A DNA stretch of 64,000 bases from a plasmid. How positions within the stretch are numbered: position 1 is the stretch's first letter; every line of letters begins with the position of its first letter. The stretch lies in sequence record NZ_CP118990.1; one strand, written 5' to 3'. Of this stretch, positions 4,021-64,000 are shown piece after piece. The position numbers were made by a program, and so were the translations under genes. A model generated the notes under the pieces. The model saw nothing but the letters and a program-made list of their open reading frames with translations, was not told where the DNA came from and did not search any database.

Positions 4021-4866
4021 ATGATTAAGCAACATTTTCAAAATGAACTGGTCAAGCACGGCTACCCCGCAGATCTGACTATCGAATACAGTCTGGGATA
4101 CTGTCAGGGAGATGGCATGGCCTTCTACGGAAGCCTGGGTGTTGATGACGTTCAGGCACTGATGAAGCGTTTGTTCGGTACCGAGCAGGGCTCAGCCGAT
4201 GCAGTTCGCCGAGTGAAGAACCTGATGGCGCAAAAGGACATCGATCACATGATTAATGTTCTTCGCGATTACGGTAACTGTGACCTATCTATAACTCGAA
4301 ACAGCTTCGGTCAGCATTACAGTCACTGGAATACGATGAGAATCGATAGCAACGTGGACTTCACCGGGGTTTTCCCTGATGAAGAGACCATGCTGGGAAC
4401 TGGCATTGAGGGTATCAACCCTGAGATGTTGGAACGCTGGCAAGGTATCTGGGATCGCTTCATTGACGCGCTCCAGGACGACGTAAAGAGCTTATCCAAG
4501 AGGCTTGAAGCTGATGGATATAAGCTGATCGAAGCTACCCCGTATGAAGAGACAGTTGTTTGGCAACGAACTACTGAAAGCTACCAGGTACGTGTCATCG
4601 AGCTCCCTGAACACGAGTTTGACATGGATGACTGGGATGCAGATTGTCGAGACCAGACCATTCGCGATCTCCTGGATGGGAGTCAGCGAGTGCTGGGCCT
4701 ACGTGTTGAGGTTCGTGATCATGATGGCGATTACATCTTGGCTGACAACAGCATGTATGGTCTGACCCTATCCATCGATGATAAGAAGTACGATGGATAC
4801 AGACGTGAGATGCTCCGGGATGTGATAACGCAGGTCAGATTACTTAACGACCTTAAAGCGGCATGA
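4021..4866 (+). CDS. hypothetical acidic protein (about 281 aa)
   Basis: CAGGAGA RBS before ATG 4021; long clean ORF. Confidence 0.5.
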   Translation: MIKQHFQNELVKHGYPADLTIEYSLGYCQGDGMAFYGSLGVDDVQALMKRLFGTEQGSADAVRRVKNLMAQKDIDHMINVLRDYGNCDLSITRNSFGQHYSHWNTMRIDSNVDFTGVFPDEETMLGTGIEGINPEMLERWQGIWDRFIDALQDDVKSLSKRLEADGYKLIEATPYEETVVWQRTTESYQVRVIELPEHEFDMDDWDADCRDQTIRDLLDGSQRVLGLRVEVRDHDGDYILADNSMYGLTLSIDDKKYDGYRREMLRDVITQVRLLNDLKAA

Positions 4867-22755: not shown

Positions 22756-23760
22756 TTGCACCAACGGAACAACCGCGACACCACTGAACTTTCACACGCG
22801 AAAGTCATTGTCTTGCCAGAACAAACCTCAGGTGGAGGCCTCCCGCAAGTCACCGGGGGGCTCAGAAGCGCACAAGATAATCCGGCAGTTGCATACCTGA
22901 TCAGCCTTGGCTCCAGGCGCAGTCGGCAAACCATGGGCTCATTTCTCAGCATTGTTGCTCGGATGATCGGGTACCAAAACCTGCGTGATTGCGCGTGGGA
23001 GTCGATGCGGCGGCATCATGTCCAAGCTGTGATCCAAATGCTCAGTGACTCTGACCGAGCGCCAGCTACGATCAATACCTACCTGGCAGCGCTGAAAGGA
23101 GTTGCCCTGGAAGCGTGGACAATGAAGCTGATTGATACCGACAGTTACCAGCATATCAAGCAGGTGCGTTCGGTGAGAGGCTCTCGTTTACCCAACGGGC
23201 GGGCCCTCGAAAAGCACGAGGTCAGAGCCCTTTATTTCACATGTGAAAACGATCGGAGCTCCAAAGGGCTGCGTGACGCAGCCATCCTTGCTGTTTTAGT
23301 CGGGTGCGGACTTCGGCGCTCAGAGGTTGTCGCCCTCGATATGGAATGTGTCATCACCAGGGATCAGGCACTTCGTGTGCTCGGTAAGGGCAATAAAGAA
23401 CGCATCGCCTATGTGCCTGACGGGGCATGGCAGCGGCTTATGCGGTGGGTGGAGGAGGTTCGTGGTGATCAGCCGGGATCGCTGTTTCAGCGGATCAGGC
23501 GGTTTGATGATGTCACCGCCGACAGAATGACTGACCAGGCTATCTATCACATTCTTGAAACGAGAAGGATTGAGGCGGGGCTGGAAAAATTCGCTCCTCA
23601 TGATCTCCGCAGAACCTTTGCATCGGCCATGCTGGATAATGGCGAGGACATCATCACGGTCAAGGATGCGATGGGCCATGCCAGTGTCACGACCACGCAG
23701 AAGTATGATCGTCGGGGAGATGAGCGATTGAAACAGGCCAGTCGGCGACTCGATTTTTGA
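22756..23760 (+). CDS. Tyrosine site-specific recombinase (phage integrase / XerCD family)
   Basis: C-terminal HDLRRTFASAMLDNGEDIITVKDAMGHASVTTTQKYDRR carries the catalytic R...HxxR...Y region. Start is 3 nt after the phosphatase stop. Confidence 0.8.
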   Translation: MHQRNNRDTTELSHAKVIVLPEQTSGGGLPQVTGGLRSAQDNPAVAYLISLGSRRSRQTMGSFLSIVARMIGYQNLRDCAWESMRRHHVQAVIQMLSDSDRAPATINTYLAALKGVALEAWTMKLIDTDSYQHIKQVRSVRGSRLPNGRALEKHEVRALYFTCENDRSSKGLRDAAILAVLVGCGLRRSEVVALDMECVITRDQALRVLGKGNKERIAYVPDGAWQRLMRWVEEVRGDQPGSLFQRIRRFDDVTADRMTDQAIYHILETRRIEAGLEKFAPHDLRRTFASAMLDNGEDIITVKDAMGHASVTTTQKYDRRGDERLKQASRRLDF

Positions 23761-25313: not shown

Positions 25314-25526
25314 AATTTGGGGTGGCCCTGCATGACAGGGCCAGTACGAACCTAGTGTCATCACCAGTAAGGTAGCTGGGAGAGGACGGAGCCTAGAAGT
25401 AGAGATCCCGCTAGGTCCTCTTATTTTCAATTGGCTACTCTTGTCTGCTCTTGATTTGCACTTGTTTAATACTGATTCCGCCGCGGTTACTCTCCTCCTG
25501 CACCTGACCAAACGGAGAGAAATTAT

Positions 25527-26070
25527 GCGCTATCACTCACCTCTGCACGACCCGCTGACTCAAGATGAACTCAATGCACTTAGAGCCTCACTCTCTGCAA
25601 AAGAGTTCCAGCATGACTTATTCCGAGCATTCCTGTTCGTATGCGAGACAGGGTTGAGTTGGGAGGATGTTTACCTCCTAAAGTGGACGCAAATCGATAG
25701 GGAAAACCACCTGCTGGTTCACGACTATGAACGAATCAATGGACATCAAACCCAACGCCTTTCGCAGTTCGCATTGAATGTTTTGCCCGAGCAGAGCAGC
25801 AGCAAGGTCTTTCCTGATCTACATTTCGAGCTCATTCAAGACCGATATGGGGAATGGTGCTCGTCTGACCTATGGGTCTGGGGGAAGAGATCAAATATCA
25901 AGCGCGGGTTTTGTCTTGAGGCTGCTGGGGCCACCTTCGTTACCAAAATGACAGCTCAACACGTTGATGAGCATGAGCTCGCAAAAATGCTGAACATTAC
26001 CGAGCTCGACTTACGTTGGATTTACCCAATACGTTCATTTAACCCGATTGACCTAATGTTCCTCTCCTAA
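25527..26070 (+). CDS. hypothetical protein with a degenerate integrase-like segment
   Basis: LFRAFLFVCETGLSWEDVYLLKWTQID resembles recombinase box I, but it lacks the Arg and the C-terminal catalytic motifs. Confidence 0.3.
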
Positions 26071-26107: not shown

Positions 26108-27220
26108 ATGCCGCTAAAGTGCTTGCACCACCACACCACCATCTTCGCCTTTGATTTCGATGCAGCAGGTTGGGAGAAACTGAAAGCCAGCAACCGAGCA
26201 GATGCCGGCCTCATAATGACATGCTGCCAGGCCCGAGCGGTCCCGAAGGTATCCAAGCTCGGCACCCGGTTCTTTGCACATCACAAGAGTGGCGAATGTA
26301 CCAGCACACCGGAGACAGCGGAGCACCTATGGGCCAAGACCATCGTCTGTCAGGCTGCCCGAGCGGCAGGGTGGACAGCCGATACGGAGGTAAGGGGCCA
26401 AACTCCGGCCGGTGAAGACTGGGTGGCCGATGTGCTATCCACCAAAGGCAGCGCTAAGGTCGCCATCGAGATCCAGTGGTCACGCCAAGGCACCGAAGAG
26501 ACCCAGCGCCGTCAGCGTCGCTATGCCGACTCTGGAGTGCGAGCATTATGGCTACTGCGTCACCCTGACCTGCTGGTGGAGCGGGGCACGCCATCGTTCT
26601 TGTTGGATGTCCGAGCGAGTGAGTCAGCAGCCTTCGTGCGACTCCCATCAAGCCAATTCGATCCGCGCTGGGTCACCAACCGCAACAAGAGCGAAGCGGA
26701 ATATTGGCAGCAAACCATCGCGCTGGAGACGTTCGTCCGTGGAGCCCTGACCGGCTCATTAAAGTTCGCCCCGGCGATTGACCAGCCCATACCGGTGACC
26801 ATCAGTGCCACAAAGATCCGGTGCTGGCGCTGTAAGCGTGAGACCTGGACGGTACAAGGGCTTACCCTGGAGGTCAGTACGCGGTTCGCGGGTCACCCAG
26901 ACCTGCACACGAGCCTTGAAGAGCTCGATAGCGGGGAGGAGACTGCACCGTGGCTGGCTAACTTGTTCCCGGCCGCACTGTTGAAGCAACACGGGATAGG
27001 CGTGATCAAGCCGCGCTTTAGCCGCACAGCAGGATGCAGCTATCTATCGAACGGCTGTACACACTGCGACGCCCTCCAGGGTCGCCACTTTGACCACGAC
27101 GATTACCAGGAAGCGACCGACGTCTGCCAGTATGAAGTCACCCTGAGTAGTGAGTTGCTAGAGCAACTGGCTACCGTGGGCAACGATATTGCCTATCGCT
27201 GGTGGTTTGCAGAGAGGTAA
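26108..27220 (+). CDS. CoiA-like nuclease-family protein with a C-terminal zinc ribbon
   Basis: AIEIQWSRQG...RRYADSGVRALWL fits the CoiA-like (PD-(D/E)xK) signature. CWRCKRE...CTHCD Cys pairs. Confidence 0.45.
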   Translation: MPLKCLHHHTTIFAFDFDAAGWEKLKASNRADAGLIMTCCQARAVPKVSKLGTRFFAHHKSGECTSTPETAEHLWAKTIVCQAARAAGWTADTEVRGQTPAGEDWVADVLSTKGSAKVAIEIQWSRQGTEETQRRQRRYADSGVRALWLLRHPDLLVERGTPSFLLDVRASESAAFVRLPSSQFDPRWVTNRNKSEAEYWQQTIALETFVRGALTGSLKFAPAIDQPIPVTISATKIRCWRCKRETWTVQGLTLEVSTRFAGHPDLHTSLEELDSGEETAPWLANLFPAALLKQHGIGVIKPRFSRTAGCSYLSNGCTHCDALQGRHFDHDDYQEATDVCQYEVTLSSELLEQLATVGNDIAYRWWFAER

Positions 27221-27237
27221 ACGTGGCCGGTTTCTTC

Positions 27238-27527
27238 ATAAATTAGACCATCATGCAGCGAGGGGTAGAAAGCCCCACACCAACCCCCGAGGCCTACCTT
27301 TTACCCCGGCGCCGCTCCACTGAGCGCGTCTCTTCTTTCTCTCTCTTTTTCTCTCTTTCTCAATCTAATCTCCCGCGAGCGCGGGCCTAGCACAGGGGCT
27401 GAGCTCGTTCGGGGGTAAGGCTCACCGGGTCCAACATTGTCACGATAAAACATCGGGCTCACCCTCCCCCGACGCCGCGCAGCGGCGGCGATCATCTCTT
27501 ATACCCCTCGTTGCATGATGGTCTAAT
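27238..27527. repeat. 290-bp segment bounded by 25-bp inverted repeats (ATTAGACCATCATGCAGCGAGGGG / CCCCTCGTTGCATGATGGTCTAAT). The interior holds a polypyrimidine mirror tract and GC hairpins.
   Basis: Read directly; one mismatch between the arms. It lies immediately upstream of the Tus-like gene. Confidence 0.6.
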
Positions 27528-27582
27528 ATTGCCTATTCTCTAACCAATATTCTATCGGTACAAACCCCAGGTAAGGACCTCC

Positions 27583-28464
27583 ATGCAGACTAACTTCATC
27601 TCCGAACAGTACACAGCCATCACCCGTGACCTCGATCGCCTCGCAACTCTCATCCGGCGCCTGCCCCATCGCGACGCCCGTGTCGCGGCCATCACACCCA
27701 CGGCCAAAGGCTCCGAAAGCGAGCCTACAACCAACATTGTTGTCCTGGAACAAACCGGGAGCGATGCCCTGGCGCTCGCCGCCGACTGCTACCGGGATCT
27801 CCACATCATCCCCCAGCTCTCCCAGAAGTCGGCCCGCCGAACCGTCGGCGTATTGTGGCTCTCCCCTTCCCAGAGCGGCGCGGCCGCCACTGACGAGCTC
27901 CGGCAGCTGGTGGACCGCATCAACACCGCCAAGGCCGGTATCGAGACGTTCATCGTCTCCAACTACGGCACCCGCCAGGAGCGTTTTGAGGCACTCCGGG
28001 CCGAATGCCCCGGCGTGATGACCCTGCACCTGTACCGGCAGATCCGGTGCTATGCCGAGGGGGACGTGGATTCTATCCGGTTCACCTGGCAGCAGAAGGA
28101 CTCGCTCAAACGGCCCGACAAAGATGAGCTGATGCGCCGGATCCGGGTTGAACTGGAGAAAGCAGGGCCAGATTTTCGGCCGCAGCTGGAGGAGCTGCTC
28201 GACAAGATTTCCGGCACCCCCGAGGCAGCGCTGCGCGAGCGCCGGGAGGTAAAGGTGCAGCCGGTGGCAAACATCATGGCCGCGGGGGCACTGAGAACGG
28301 TGACGGCACCGATGCCTCTGATCCTGCTCCAGGATGCTGATGCCAAGATCAAGATGCTCAAGTCGTTTGACCCGAAGGCAGGGCGCAAAACGCGGAACGA
28401 CCGGGTGGAATCCCGTGTTATCGGGACATTTTGCGGGGTCGCCATCGAGGCATTTCCGTTGTGA
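27583..28464 (+). CDS. Tus-like DNA replication terminus site-binding protein homologue
   Basis: Similar to E. coli Tus: GVMTLHLYRQI vs GLITLNAYRTL, IRFTWQQKD vs LRFGWANKH, VKVQPVANI vs VKVQPIARV, APMPLILLQD vs CPTPLIALIN. Confidence 0.6.
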   Translation: MQTNFISEQYTAITRDLDRLATLIRRLPHRDARVAAITPTAKGSESEPTTNIVVLEQTGSDALALAADCYRDLHIIPQLSQKSARRTVGVLWLSPSQSGAAATDELRQLVDRINTAKAGIETFIVSNYGTRQERFEALRAECPGVMTLHLYRQIRCYAEGDVDSIRFTWQQKDSLKRPDKDELMRRIRVELEKAGPDFRPQLEELLDKISGTPEAALRERREVKVQPVANIMAAGALRTVTAPMPLILLQDADAKIKMLKSFDPKAGRKTRNDRVESRVIGTFCGVAIEAFPL

Positions 28465-28602
28465 TGACATGACGGGATAAGCAAGGTGGGCCGTTGAAAA
28501 CGGCCATATCCGGGGTTTGGGGAGCAATGGAACCAAAAACCAACGTAAGCTCTGAATCCCACCGTAAAGGGGCTTTCCGATCTCCAGCTCACCCGCCAGG
28601 CA

Positions 28603-29004
28603 TTACTCTCTGATCAGTGCCTCGATGATCGGGCAGATCGTTCCGCCGTCTCCCGCATCACATTGCTGCACCAGTTCGCCTAACAGTTGCTGCATGACGA
28701 CCAAGTCGGCCATCTTCTGCTCGATCAACGCGAGCTTGCGTGCAGCCCGTGCTCGCGTTTCGGCACAGGCGCACGACTCATCCAGCGTCAGCAGTCCACC
28801 GACTTCCGAGAGCGTGAAACCCAGCGCCTGAGCCCGCTTGATGAAACGCAGTCGCTTCACCATGTCCACCGGATAGCGCCGATGGCCACCCAAGGGTTTG
28901 GCTGGTTCATCCAGCAGCCCGCGTCGCTGGTAGTAGCGGATCGTCTCGACGTTCACCCCGGCGGCGTCTGCCAGCTTGCCAATGGTCAGCTCTGTGGCCA
29001 TCAC
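28603..29004 (-). CDS. merR: MerR-family mercury-responsive regulator (copy 1, divergent from merT)
   Basis: N-terminal [28 protein letters not shown]. Cys residues C...CDAGDGGTICP. Divergent from merT and merP. Confidence 0.8.
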   Translation of the reverse strand: MMATELTIGKLADAAGVNVETIRYYQRRGLLDEPAKPLGGHRRYPVDMVKRLRFIKRAQALGFTLSEVGGLLTLDESCACAETRARAARKLALIEQKMADLVVMQQLLGELVQQCDAGDGGTICPIIEALIRE

Positions 29005-42356: not shown

Positions 42357-43609
42357 CTATTCCATCCACAAGTCGTCGAGGTTCTTGAAGTTCCAGAGCG
42401 TCGGGTCTTCGGGGCCAGTGATACTGTCCTTGCAACTCGTGGCCGCCAGGTCGATGGTCTGCATCGGGATCGGCTCTCTCGAGCGTAGCGAGAAGAACAC
42501 GCGAACCTTGGGAGTCAGCAGTGATTCCATTCCCGGCTCAACGACAACGGCCAGACGCTGAGAGGACAGGCGAACCAAGGAGCCGACGGGGTAGATGCCC
42601 ACGGCCTTGACGAAGGCGTGGAAGATGCGTTTGTCGAAATGGCCCTCCCACTTGGCCATCTGCCGCATCGCCGCGGACGGGTCCCACGGCTTTTTGTAGG
42701 CTCGCTCCGACGTCACGGCATCATAGACGTCGCAGATTGCGCCCATGCGGGCCAGGAGTGAAATGGCGTCACCGGCCAAGCGATCCGGGTAGCCGGTTCC
42801 GTCGATCTTCTCGTGATGGTGCAGGGCAATGTCCACCACCCCGGGCTCGGCCCCGCCTGCGCGCAGCATCTTTGCGCCCTCCACAGGGTGGCGCTTCATG
42901 ATGGCGAACTCGGCATCGGTGAGCTTGCCTGGTTTGTTAAGCACTTCCAGCGGCATCGCGGCCTTGCCTAGGTCGTGCATCAGTCCGCCGATGCCAGCCA
43001 GGCGCGTTTGCTCCTCGTCTAGATCGAGATGCCGGGCCAGCGATAGCATCAGGGCGCAGACGGCAACCGAGTGCAGGTAGGTGTAATCGTCGTGCGTTTT
43101 GATGCGTGCGACGCTGATGAGGGCATGAGGTTGGCGCAGCACCGAGGCAGCGATTTCTCCGACCAGCGGCAACGTCGTGCTTGGGTCGACGGCCTTGCCA
43201 AGCCGGGCTTCCTGGAACATGTCCATGACTTGGGACTTGGCCGCAAGACAGAGTTTCCGTGCATAACACATTTCGCTCTCCATTGAGGTTGCGCCGTCAC
43301 TTTTCTTGCTTAGTGGACTAGACGGCAGAGATTGCTCCTCCGACAATTCTCTGGGCTCTGGGCTCTGGGCTCTGGGCTCTGGGCTCTGGGCTCTGGGCTC
43401 TCTGGGCTCTCTGGGCTCTCTGGGTCGACTTGGCTTTTGGCCAAGTCGACCCAGACCTCCCCGACGCCACATTCTCGAATGGCAGAGAGATCCTGAGGCT
43501 CGGTCAGCAGGAAGCTGCCGCGCCAGAATGGGTGTCGAAACCAAGAGCCGGCGAGCTTGTGGATGTACATGCCGAGACGAAGCTCGGATACGGGAATGCG
43601 TTTTACCAA
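42357..43609 (-). pseudogene. HD-GYP c-di-GMP phosphodiesterase gene split by a frameshift inside a heptanucleotide tandem repeat
   Basis: N-terminal domain ORF 43609-43310 (DUF3391-like MVKRIPVSELRLGMYIHKL). HD-GYP ORF 43544-42357 (HDLGK...HHHEKIDGTGYP). The two frames overlap across the (CTGGGCT)7(CTCTGGGCT)2 tract at 43349-43426. Confidence 0.7.
43349..43426. repeat. Tandem repeat (CTGGGCT)x7 followed by 9-mer variants, encoding a PEPRAQS/SPE peptide repeat in every frame
   Basis: Read directly. Confidence 0.9.
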
Positions 43610-43726
43610 CTTATTTTCCTTTCTGAGTTGGGTGGTTAGGCGTGCGCCGAGGCTGGCACCCAGCGGTAGAGCGGAGGTAAGGTCACGCCAAGATTCTTGG
43701 ATCAGCCGGAACCGCCGAAATTTCCG

Positions 43727-44119
43727 TCAGCCGATCAACATGGCTTTGTCTCGCGCTCGGTCGATGCGTTCCTGCATCGCCTGCATGACTTCTTCGTGGG
43801 TGTACGACTTGGCGTTGGGGTCGTCGGCCTCTCGGAGAGCTTCCTCGACCTCGCGGGTCATCCGCGCATATTCTTCCGGCCACAGCGCTTGCTCCATGCG
43901 CAGCGACGCCTGCCCAAGCAGGTGCAGCAGGCCGAACAGCCGCATGTCATTGGTGGCGACGACGTGCTCTCGAATCCGCTCCTGGATCACCTCGCAGGCC
44001 CGATGCGCCTCTGGCGTCGCCGTGCCCTCGTAGCCGGCTGGGAGTTCTGCTTCTTCAGCGATTCGCGCCCAAGCGATAGCCAGCGCCTCGATGGTGGACA
44101 GGTTCATTTGCTCATCCAC
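43727..44119 (-). CDS. hypothetical protein (130 aa)
   Basis: ORF inside the transposon; overlaps the next gene. Confidence 0.35.
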   Translation of the reverse strand: MDEQMNLSTIEALAIAWARIAEEAELPAGYEGTATPEAHRACEVIQERIREHVVATNDMRLFGLLHLLGQASLRMEQALWPEEYARMTREVEEALREADDPNAKSYTHEEVMQAMQERIDRARDKAMLIG

Positions 44120-61254: not shown

Positions 61255-62316
61255 CATTAAAATCTGGCCGCTCATGGATGGGGCTAGTAAAAAATCGCTG
61301 TAAAAATGGCGACCACTATTGGGTAAGTGCTTATGTAACGCCAATAGCTAAGAATGGTTCGATTGTTGAATACCAGTCTGTAAGGACCAAGCCTGAACCT
61401 GAGCAGGTTTTGGCTGCGGAAAAATTATATGCTCAATTGAGAAGCGGGAAGGCCGCGAGGCCGAAATTGGCTGCTAGCTTTTCCGTGAAAATACTCTTGC
61501 TCATATGGGGTAGTATTATATCAAGCGCAATGGCTGCCGGCATGCTTACTGATACATCAATAAGCAGCTTATTGTTAGCCACTTTAATGTCAGGAAGCTT
61601 AAGCTCTGTTAGTGTTTTGGCTATTCTCTCTCCTCTTGGAAGACTGGTTGAAAGAGCCAGGAATATTTCCAATAACCCATTAAGTCAATCCCTCTACACT
61701 GGGCGCACCGATGAGTTTGGCCAAATAGAGTTTGCTTTACGAATGATGCAAGCTGAAACAGGCGCCATAGTAGGTCGCATAGGTGATGCATCAAATCGGC
61801 TTAGCGAACACACCCGAGGCCTACTAAAGGATATTGAGTCAAGCAATGTACTTACAGTTGAGCAGCAGGCAGAGACAGATCAAATAGCAACGGCAGTAAA
61901 CCAAATGGTGGCAAGCATTCAAGAGGTTGCGAGCAATGCACAGCATGCTGCAGATGCGGCCGGAAGAGCAGACACTGAGACGGCATCTGGCCAGCGTCTG
62001 GTAGCCCACACAAGCCAGTCAATCACTGCCCTTGAAGGTGAAATTAGGCAAGCCGCTCAGGTTATTCATGAGCTTGAAGGTCAAAGTAACGAGATATCAA
62101 AAGTTCTTGACGTTATACGAGGGATCGCCGAGCAAACGAATTTGTTGGCACTCAACGCAGCAATTGAGGCCGCGCGTGCTGGTGAGCAGGGGCGTGGTTT
62201 TGCTGTTGTCGCCGATGAGGTTCGCAGTCTTGCTGCTCGCACACAGCAATCGACAACGGATATTCAAAGCATGATCAGCGCTCTACAAGAGCGAGCGCAA
62301 TCCGCTGTTACAGTCA

Positions 62317-63524
62317 GGGCGGGATCGCACTTTGTTAATGAAATTTGAACAGGCAGATCGTCTGTGATCTAATCGCGTCTCCATGCAGGAGGCACGCGCT
62401 ATGACGTTGATTGAACACCTTACCCTTGTCGAAGAAACTCGCTCTGAGATCAATCGTAAACATAACCTGGTTGATGTCATGTTCCTTGTCATCAGTGCCA
62501 TCATGAGTGGTGCCGAGGGCTGGAATGACATCGAAACCTATGGCGATTCAAAGATCGATTGGCTGCGTCAGCATCGCCCCTTTGCCAACGGCATCCCGCG
62601 GCGTCACACGGTTGCCCGCATTCTGCGCTGCATTGTCATCGATACCTTGCTTGAAGCGTTGCTGTGCTGGGTCAATGAACAGCGCACTCATCAGGGCAAA
62701 CCCATCATTGCCTTTGATGGCAAGGTGTTACGCGGCTCCTTTCGGGGAAATGCCAAGGATGCGCTTCAGTTGGTCACGGCTTACGATACCGAAAATGGGC
62801 TGGTGTTAAGCCAGAAAGCAACCCCTAACAAGAAGGGGGAAATCGAAACCGTCAAAGATATGCTGGACATTCTTGAGCTAAAAGGAGCCGTTGTCACACT
62901 CGATGCGTTGCATTGTCAGCGTGAGACACTGGAGAAAATCAGCGAGAAGAAGGCTCATGTAGTGGTACAGGTCAAGAATAATCAACCGAAGCTGTATCAA
63001 GCGGTTCAATCGCAATTCCAGTCACTGTTTGACGCCCAGAAAGAGAAGATTGTCGTCGAGCACAAAGAGAGTGGACATGGCCGCCAGGAAGAGCGTTATG
63101 TGTTTCAATTAAAAGCCAAATTACCGCCAGAGTTGACGGAGAAATGGCCGACAATCCGCAGCATCATTGCCGTTGAGCGTCACCGCAGCGCCAACGGAAA
63201 AGGAACGGTAGATACCTCTTACTATGTCAGCTCGTTATCCCCCAAGCACAAGCTGCTAGGGCACTATATACGGCAGCACTGGCGGATAGAGAACAGCCAG
63301 CATTACATTCTTGATGTGGTGTTCAACGAGGATGCTTCCAGGATAGCGATGGAGGATGCGGTCGAGAATATGGCGCTATTCCGGCGGTTCGTATTGAATA
63401 TCGTAAAACAGAGCAATTGTGGTGCTCGAAGTCAGAGAAACAAGCTAAAAAGAGCCGGCTGGAATGACGACTATCGGGCTCAGTTATTCTTTGGTTAAAA
63501 TATCAACAAAGTGTGCTCCCGCCC
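62317..63524 (+). mobile_element. ISAs1-family (H-repeat) insertion sequence (Tnp 62383-63498, 371 aa) with a 13-bp target-site duplication (TSD) GCTGTTACAGTCA
   Basis: IRs GGGCGGGATCGCACTTTGTT / AACAAAGTGTGCTCCCGCCC. Flanking duplication at 62304-62316 and 63526-63538. Confidence 0.8.
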
Positions 63525-64000
63525 TGCTGTTACAGTCATGGAGCAAAGTAGTCGGCAAGCGCACACGAGTGTAGCTCACGCAGAGGAAGCAGCTACAGCT
63601 CTTGATGGAATTGGCCAACGCGTTAACGAAATTACCGACATGAACGCGCAAATAGCGACTGCGGTCGAGCAGCAGGGAGCAGTAAGTGAAGACATAAACC
63701 GCAGTATTATCAATATACGCGATGCTGCTGATACCAATGTACAGACCGGGCAGAATAATTTGCAAAGTGCGAAATCTGTCGCTCAGTTAACTAGCGCTCT
63801 GAGCGAACTGGCAAAACAGTTTTGGGAAAAACGAGGATAACGCTTTTCAGTATCTCGACAGGGATAACTTACTTTACCATCGGTTATCCCTTTTAGCCGC
63901 ACAAATTTTAGCCATGGCTTTTCAGGAAGTCAGGGCTATCAGAATGGCCTTAGAAAGCCTAGTCAAAGAGCTGTCACGAGAACACCGTTAGCTTAGCGTA

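Follow-up and report, generated by a model that had tools for sequence, protein, structure and literature searches.

In Escherichia coli, the end of a Ter site that carries the G at position 6 (G6) is the face that blocks replication forks, and one of these sites, TerB, doubles as the operator of tus. In Bacillus subtilis, the opposed terminators IRI and IRII lie immediately upstream of rtp, the gene for RTP, which is autoregulated through them. For the plasmid R6K, a core of 20 bp in inverted repeat was reportedly described by Horiuchi and Hidaka in 1988. R6K and R1 carry opposed ter sites and use the Tus protein of their host (PMC10331603). Chromosomal fork traps have been suggested to derive from 'mobile' tus genes borne on plasmids (Galli et al. 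2019, PMC6549158), and in a 2023 review the ter of a plasmid-derived Pseudoalteromonas tus, which lies by the origin of a second chromosome, is only implied and carries a question mark (PMC10331603). A search of open-access text turned up no definition of the site that a Tus of the IncA/C type recognises, only mentions at the level of annotation, and the gene of IncC and IncA plasmids is annotated merely as 'terminus site-binding protein'. In this paper we analyse a tus gene and the pair of inverted repeats directly upstream of it in a 64,000-nucleotide stretch of plasmid DNA (record NZ_CP118990.1; hereafter the window, with positions counted from its first letter), which is the backbone of a pAsa4-like Aeromonas plasmid and a relative of IncA and IncC. 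The gene and its repeats probably make up a self-contained termination cassette of MOBH-type conjugative plasmids of the pAsa4/IncA/IncC lineage, in which a plasmid-encoded Tus and two inverted variant Ter sites would form a compact, asymmetric fork trap.

The tus gene of the window is an open reading frame of 293 amino acids on the plus strand (27583-28464), preceded by the Shine-Dalgarno sequence AAGGA at 27573-27577. Its product matches PF05472 of Pfam (E 8.6e-41, 140.3 bits, cut-off 22 bits) and the NCBIfam equivalog NF002810 (397.2 bits, cut-off 323); against the enterobacterial equivalog TIGR02648 it scores 86.7, below the cut-off of 178.3. It is about 24% identical to E. coli Tus (1ECR), with which phmmer aligns it over residues 30-253 (E 2e-16). 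The collinear blocks that the initial annotation had pointed out, among them VKVQPxA and PxPLIxL, recur in this alignment, where VKVQPVANI stands opposite VKVQPIARV and PMPLILL opposite PTPLIAL of E. coli. An AlphaFold model built with 37 homologues as input has a predicted local distance difference test score (pLDDT) of 93.2 and a predicted template modelling score (pTM) of 0.84. Foldseek superposes the model on 1ECR with E 2.8e-21, template modelling (TM) scores of 0.86 and 0.83 and a root-mean-square deviation of 2.8 over 308 columns, and the best match to a protein other than Tus has E 0.35. The fold on which the initial annotation had staked part of its case was found, as was the membership of the family, with Pfam and NCBIfam scores above their cut-offs and a TM score of 0.86 to 1ECR, and the 293-residue open reading frame is a genuine Tus. 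In the pocket that holds cytosine-6, residues I79, F140 and G149 of E. coli are identical in the plasmid protein (I75, F135 and G144), L150 is replaced by V145, and the DNA-contact residue K89 is kept. By homology, the plasmid Tus would bind Ter in a sequence-specific manner and arrest the helicase from one side.

Upstream of tus, a repeat finder returned two arms of 29 nt that are 93% complementary. The distal arm, of the two candidate Ter sites the one farther from tus, occupies 27242-27270 on the minus strand and has the core TGCATGATGGTCTAA on that strand (plus coordinates 27243-27257). The proximal arm, a candidate Ter site adjoining tus and its presumed operator, occupies 27499-27527 on the plus strand, 56 bp before the ATG of tus, with the same core at 27512-27526 on the tus-sense strand. 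Between them lies a spacer of 228 nt (27271-27498), the interior of the putative trap. The initial annotation had described a near-perfect inverted repeat flanking a CT-rich mirror repeat over 290 bp; the arrangement is confirmed, and the whole unit measures 286 bp. The 24-mer ATTAGACCATCATGCAGCGAGGGG at 27242-27265 of the plus strand returns inverted, with 1 mismatch, at 27504-27527, and these are its only 2 copies in the 64 kb at up to 3 mismatches; 100 shuffles of the sequence gave 0.

For comparison of the arms, 22 further tus loci from genomes and several from plasmids were gathered. The 15-bp core, which is not palindromic, is invariant in 28 arms of 14 lineages with Tus identities down to 44%, and the core of the distal arm taken separately is invariant in 14 of 14, whereas the spacers of different plasmid groups are about 50% identical, which is near random. 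All loci with a Tus of 56% identity or more to that of the window have an arm pair, and so do a Vibrio harveyi plasmid (Tus 44%), pPp47 of Proteus penneri (33%), a Moellerella contig (37%) and a further contig (L029, Tus 40%), the last with the pair 1.2 kb ahead of its tus gene. Among plasmid records, 1,075 contain the arm sequence, at 2,083 places in all, or two per plasmid and always beside tus; its carriers are IncC, IncA and pAsa4-type plasmids, all with the order arm, spacer, arm, tus. Scans of the whole plasmids pUMNK88 (160,573 bp) and pAsa4 (166,749 bp) returned no site beyond the two arms at up to 2 core mismatches. The genes to the left of the module vary between plasmid groups while the module stays with tus, and the homology between the window and IncA starts exactly at the left arm. 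In 968 of 972 IncC plasmids the module is collinear and in a single orientation.

Two side observations concern the comparison of these loci. Between the window and IncA (L001), the spacer is 91% identical, the tus leader 63% and the tus coding sequence 69%, and the interior of the module has apparently been exchanged between lineages with breakpoints at the arms. In Moritella (L024, L025, L028 and L031), one proximal site stands at -80, and a weaker inverted look-alike, GCATGTTGGT/GTATGTTGGT, lies about 160 bp past the tus stop, some 1030 bp after the tus start; this look-alike would face outward, does not fit a trap and may be a chance match or a pseudo-site.

The relation of the arms to the Ter sites of E. 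coli emerges from the more distant loci. K-12 TerB reads AATAAGTATGTTGTAACTAAAGT on the tus-sense strand, 11 bp ahead of the ATG, while the arms of pPp47 read TTTGTATGTTGGCATATTT, those of Moellerella ATAGTATGTTGGTCTAG and those of the window TTGCATGATGGTCTAA. Both the Moellerella (AGTATGTTGGTCTAG) and the pPp47 (GTATGTTGGCATA) arms contain GTATGTTG exactly as it stands at positions 6-13 of E. coli Ter, and the Moellerella arm has GGTCTA in common with that of the window, so that the shared blocks form a graded series from the E. coli core to the window core. The G at position 6 is invariant across the window, Moellerella, pPp47 and E. coli sites, and the first G of the plasmid core aligns with G6 of TerB. 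As the alignment places them, the intermediates GTATGTTGGTCTA and GTATGTTGGCATA link the window core to the E. coli Ter core GTATGTTGTAACTA by few substitutions, and the arm is, judged by its letters, a variant Ter site outside the E. coli consensus class. One detail of the initial annotation is not upheld by this alignment: the AATTAG at one end of the repeat had been likened to the start of the Ter consensus, and homology puts that end of the arm at CTAA(A/T), positions 17-22 of Ter, on the other strand.

In the window and at 20 other loci, the proximal arm reads on the sense strand and, like TerB, points its G6 end away from tus. The distal arm is inverted, which turns both G6 ends towards the spacer; in the window, the predicted fork-blocking end of the distal arm points right, into the spacer. 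If the polarity known from E. coli holds, both blocking faces would look inward and would enclose a trap with an interior of 228 bp. A semi-conserved TATACCCC was also observed 5-12 nt past the G6 end of both arms (27258-27270 and 27499-27511 in the window), on the predicted blocking side and outside the stretch that matches the E. coli Ter core.

The putative tus promoter (27511-27539, plus strand) consists of a -35 hexamer, TTGCAT, at 27511-27516, which lies within the proximal arm, a gap of 17 nt, and a -10 hexamer, TATTCT, at 27534-27539. Of 16 loci with this type of arm, 15 preserve the pattern [T/C]TGCAT, a gap of 17-18 nt and TAnnnT, and the conserved position of these weak hexamers is the one basis on which the promoter was assigned. 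As the proximal arm covers the -35 hexamer and part of the promoter spacer, Tus should repress tus. A single-stranded promoter hairpin, of the kind found in conjugative leading regions, was considered for the repeat and rejected, as only the 29-nt arms pair and the -10 hexamer is outside them.

Within the otherwise divergent spacer, one feature persists. A polypyrimidine tract free of G, with the purine-rich sequence on the other strand, occupies 27329-27374 of the plus strand; it has the shared core TCTCTTTTTCTC and runs of T every 9-11 bp, and 17 nt of it, at 27340-27356, form a perfect mirror repeat, TCTCTCTTTTTCTCTCT. Of 6 arm-bearing clades, 5 have such a tract, without G on one strand, between their arms, in one orientation or the other, and it is kept across clades whose Tus proteins are only 33% identical. 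This conserved polypurine/polypyrimidine tract is a third component of the cassette. In IncC plasmids, the module is 241, 251, 261 or 271 bp long according to the copy number in the tract of a 10-bp unit, CTCTCTTTTT, a step of about one helical turn (region matching L004 2890-3140). In Xenorhabdus hominickii (contig L015, 1273-1450), the entire spacer is inverted with respect to the IncC and Photorhabdus versions, with no change in the arms or the gene. In X. hominickii, pPp47 and L029, the tract has the inverted orientation relative to both tus and the gene upstream. For this reason we rejected the ideas that Rho loads on the tract or that it forms the U-tract of a terminator shielding Ter from upstream transcription, and the difference in orientation between lineages makes any strand-specific role in RNA unlikely. 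Since its orientation relative to tus varies, the tract probably acts at the level of DNA, or symmetrically, and bending, triplex formation, a primase-free zone or a site for a partner protein are possible. A weak hairpin followed by a run of T is found at 27313-27336. A structured RNA in the spacer was likewise dropped, because apart from the tract the spacer is not conserved between plasmid groups; an Rfam scan of 26900-28700 gave matches at chance level only (E > 2).

The position of the module on complete plasmids was determined relative to the origin. In the IncC plasmid pUMNK88, repA lies at 1139-2239 and the arms at 145,165-145,388, so that the origin is about 18 kb away in one direction and about 142 kb away in the other. 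In pAsa4, the orthologue of RepA, 73% identical to that of IncC, is encoded at 42,884-43,963 and the arms lie at about 62,450-62,720, about 19 kb off. The initial annotation had raised the possibility of a position diametrically opposite the origin; in both plasmids the module is instead at about 12% of the circle from oriV. A distance of 1-2 kb separates the arm pair of pPp47 (141,635-141,815 of the record; L011, and L044 900-2124) from an origin, just past repA, that has a DnaA box and many ACTGCATCAACGGCGACCTTT iterons.

Cumulative GC skew in pUMNK88 is lowest at 4,864 and peaks at 144,968, some 200 bp away from the distal arm. In windows of 1 kb, the skew is +0.068 on the long replication arm and -0.020 from tus to traG (p 1.5e-4), with genes on the same strand on both sides. 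The skew of pAsa4 is the mirror image of this, -0.050 against +0.036 (p 8.7e-5). In the window, it is positive from 1 to 26 kb, including the minus-strand genes at 14.7-20.7 kb, and flips at 26-28 kb. In IncC and in pAsa4, then, the GC skew changes sign at oriV and again at or near the module, where the change is independent of gene orientation. Two observations on pAsa4-type plasmids stand beside this result. At 136,897-148,370 of pAsa4 (L043), gene orientation and skew are both reversed in an 11-kb traL-traA segment between two inverted copies of ISAs1, which suggests a recent inversion mediated by this insertion sequence (IS). Furthermore, a CoiA-like gene lies between the backbone and the distal arm in pAsa4-type plasmids only, and its skew fits the short replication arm rather than its own side.

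These results support the interpretation given in the initial annotation, of a Tus protein with opposed variant Ter sites in a compact asymmetric fork trap whose proximal site doubles as operator, as the most likely one. The support comes from the invariant core as against divergent spacers, from the intermediate arms, from the TerB-like polarity and from the change of skew in two plasmids. We infer that Tus binds the arms, arrests forks in a polar manner, regulates its own gene and stays separate from the system of the host. In the mechanism that we propose, each arm would be bound by one Tus monomer, and a fork from either side would pass through the permissive face of the first arm and be halted at the blocking face of the second. 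An inverted pair would block a fork from either side under either polarity, so replication would have to proceed by two forks, both ending at the module. The fork that takes the short way would reach the module first, about 18-19 kb from oriV, and would be held at the distal arm until the long-way fork comes; because it arrives first and waits, termination would be fixed at one asymmetric point, as in R6K. Tus would repress its own synthesis through the proximal arm, as in the TerB-tus arrangement of E. coli. The variant core would keep the plasmid pair separate from the Tus-Ter system of the host, and it would let the trap function in hosts without Tus.

Several results weigh against this interpretation. 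In the protein, pocket residue H144 of E. coli Tus is replaced by R139, where several other plasmid clades have His, and R198 of E. coli sits in an insertion or loop that is specific to E. coli and that the plasmid Tus is without; with H144 changed to Arg and the R198 segment missing, the cytosine lock may not operate in the plasmid Tus. In the site, the ungapped arm GCATGATGGTCTAA agrees with 7 of the 12 specified positions of the consensus GNRNGTTGTAAYKA, and a 1-nt gap is needed to align CTAA. A strict scan for the sigma-70 consensus calls no tus promoter, and the hexamers match it weakly (7/12). The distribution of the sites is also not uniform, since the tus clade of Moritella has one upstream site only, and upstream of tus in the IncT and the Kluyvera/Klebsiella types no site was recognised. 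As to the skew, it turns at the CoiA-like gene, some 1.2 kb beyond the module, both in pAsa4 (at 63,960) and in the window; skew at third codon positions, taken per open reading frame, has the right direction and is not significant (p 0.066 and 0.15; n=8); and in pPp47 the skew tracks gene orientation and not the prediction, in a plasmid where uniform gene orientation and some 70 kb of accessory DNA confound it. Finally, the short-way fork would meet tus, kfrA, uvrD and traFHG head-on.

In one alternative, the arms are operators only, at which Tus, or two Tus with looping of the DNA between them, regulates tus and forks are not arrested. The proximal arm overlaps promoter-like hexamers in 15 of 16 loci, TerB too is a tus operator, and Moritella keeps the proximal site alone, all of which suits a regulatory role. 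The distal arm does not: it lies about 260 bp upstream of tus with no divergent gene to control, its left neighbours are either co-oriented with tus and end just before the arm or vary between groups, and its 15-bp core is as invariant as that of the proximal arm. Regulation would also leave the change in sign of the GC skew at or near the module in two plasmid lineages unaccounted for, and polar fork arrest is the sole known activity of the Tus fold. We consider a purely regulatory function of the arms improbable.

The link between Tus and the arms is indirect, and a gene annotated 'DNA-binding protein' follows tus in IncA, IncC and pAsa4. On these grounds the arms might be bound by another plasmid protein, such as a KfrA-like, partition or recombination factor, with Tus acting elsewhere. 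But the arm sequence varies with the Tus clade, and its variants grade into the E. coli Ter core; the position and polarity of the proximal arm are those of TerB; the module accompanies tus where the downstream gene is a different one, as in V. harveyi, in pPp47 and in the window, where a transposon follows; and no other candidate Ter was found in the complete plasmids. Binding by a protein other than Tus is hence quite unlikely, more so than a purely regulatory role.

Least credible of all is that the unit is a miniature inverted-repeat transposable element (MITE), or another mobile or invertible promoter segment, that stands beside tus by chance, for against its short non-coding form with terminal inverted repeats, the inversion of the whole spacer in X. 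hominickii, a tyrosine recombinase 3.5 kb upstream in the window and about 1.4 kb upstream in IncC, and a spacer 91% identical between the window and IncA where the tus coding sequence is 69% identical, there stand a single copy per replicon that is always at tus, the absence of a target-site duplication (the flanks TCATAA and ATTGCC differ), invariant arms around a divergent interior, which is the opposite of a young MITE family, and a consensus scan that found no promoter-like site within the spacer. We therefore rejected a MITE, there being one unit per record in about 1,000 plasmids and no target-site duplication; the multicopy element that the initial annotation had feared is likewise absent, with one pair of arms per replicon in about 1,075 plasmids. 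An inversion switch was rejected on the comparison of 972 IncC plasmids, of which 968 are in one orientation, and the X. hominickii inversion is one old event.

The trap formed by Tus and the two arms may be set in a wider evolutionary scheme, which we put forward tentatively. The cassette could be an ancestral, portable Tus-Ter trap from which chromosomal traps arose, with the tract as a functional third part and with held forks promoting recombination and the entry of transposons. Under this scheme, the proximal arm may have become the TerB-type site beside tus, and the tract might be a bent or triplex zone that positions or eases the fusion of forks, or a site for a partner protein. Recombination promoted by forks held at the cassette would explain the swapped spacers as well as the resistance transposons and IS found 0.05-1 kb past tus in several lineages.

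The genes around the module in the window include, upstream of it, a primase-like protein, a helicase, the tyrosine recombinase (22756-23760) and the CoiA-nuclease-like gene. The last of these (26108-27220) encodes a protein of 370 amino acids whose C-terminal half is rich in Cys and which has a nuclease domain of the CoiA type (PF06054, E 4e-7). Between the two, an open reading frame of 209 amino acids (25441-26070) has a faint match to phage integrases (E 0.1) and may be the remnant of a recombinase. Downstream, 48 bp beyond the stop codon of tus, the end of a Tn3-family element, GGGGTTTGGGG...ACGTAAG, starts at 28512 (28512-28549); with it begins an island of mercury and macrolide resistance that runs to about 50 kb. 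Past tus, at distances of 0.1-1 kb, transposons or IS were also observed in a Vibrio rumoiensis IncC plasmid (L006 2482-3870), in an IncT plasmid (L008 2495-3715) and in pPp47 (L011 2318-2807), and the terminus may be a hot spot of insertion. Among the transposases of the accessory region are genes for an HD-domain protein (HD_5/HD, possibly of the HD-GYP type; 42357-43544) and for a protein of the methyl-accepting chemotaxis type with HAMP and MCP signal domains (61278-62348).

IncC, IncA and their relatives are main carriers of multidrug resistance, and the end of their replication has apparently not been studied. With the Tus of the window as query, about 1,300 plasmids were found; of 72,556 plasmid records, 2,774, most of them conjugative plasmids, gave homologues in tblastn with a distant Tus, that of Paraferrimonas, so that plasmid-borne tus appears to be more widespread than the first number indicates. 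The analysis yields a candidate site of 15 bp, a graded set of variants that leads from it to E. coli Ter, and the compact architecture of the cassette. The hypothesis that Tus came from plasmids becomes directly testable with these sites, and the plasmid protein and its arms make available, to studies of mechanism and as a tool, a second Tus-Ter pair that is probably orthogonal. The model predicts bidirectional replication with a fixed terminus about 12% of the circle from oriV, which bears on plasmid stability, on the control of multimers and on conflicts with transcription.

Among described systems, the closest is Tus-TerB of E. coli, with which the plasmid locus shares a homologous protein of the same fold and a Ter-like site just upstream of its gene that has the G6 end distal and overlaps the promoter; G6 and the pattern G-ATG-TG of the core are found in plasmid arms too. 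It differs in the core (TGCATGATGGTCTAA as against AGTATGTTGTAACTAA), in the distance of the site from the ATG (56 bp as against 11 bp), in having an opposed second site 228 bp off where those of the E. coli chromosome are hundreds of kilobases apart, and in the protein, where His144 has become Arg and the loop with Arg198 is missing. With R6K and R1/R100 it has in common a pair of oppositely oriented sites in a short plasmid segment placed asymmetrically to the origin. The initial annotation had compared the layout with the fork traps of R6K and R1, and in its geometry the comparison stands, the sites being opposed and their blocking faces directed inward by homology with TerB; in its components it does not, since R6K and R1 combine Ter sites of the E. 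coli type with a borrowed host Tus, whereas the plasmid studied here encodes its own Tus and has divergent sites with a conserved tract between them. The layout of pPp47, with the trap beside the origin, resembles that of R1 and is unlike the distance of about 19 kb in IncC and pAsa4. The RTP system of B. subtilis shares the layout, but it is chromosomal and RTP is an unrelated winged-helix dimer that binds unrelated sites, and the resemblance is convergent. The tus genes reported by Galli et al. are of the same class and come from plasmids of Gammaproteobacteria; those reports give the gene only, and to it the present comparison adds a candidate pair of sites and their consensus.

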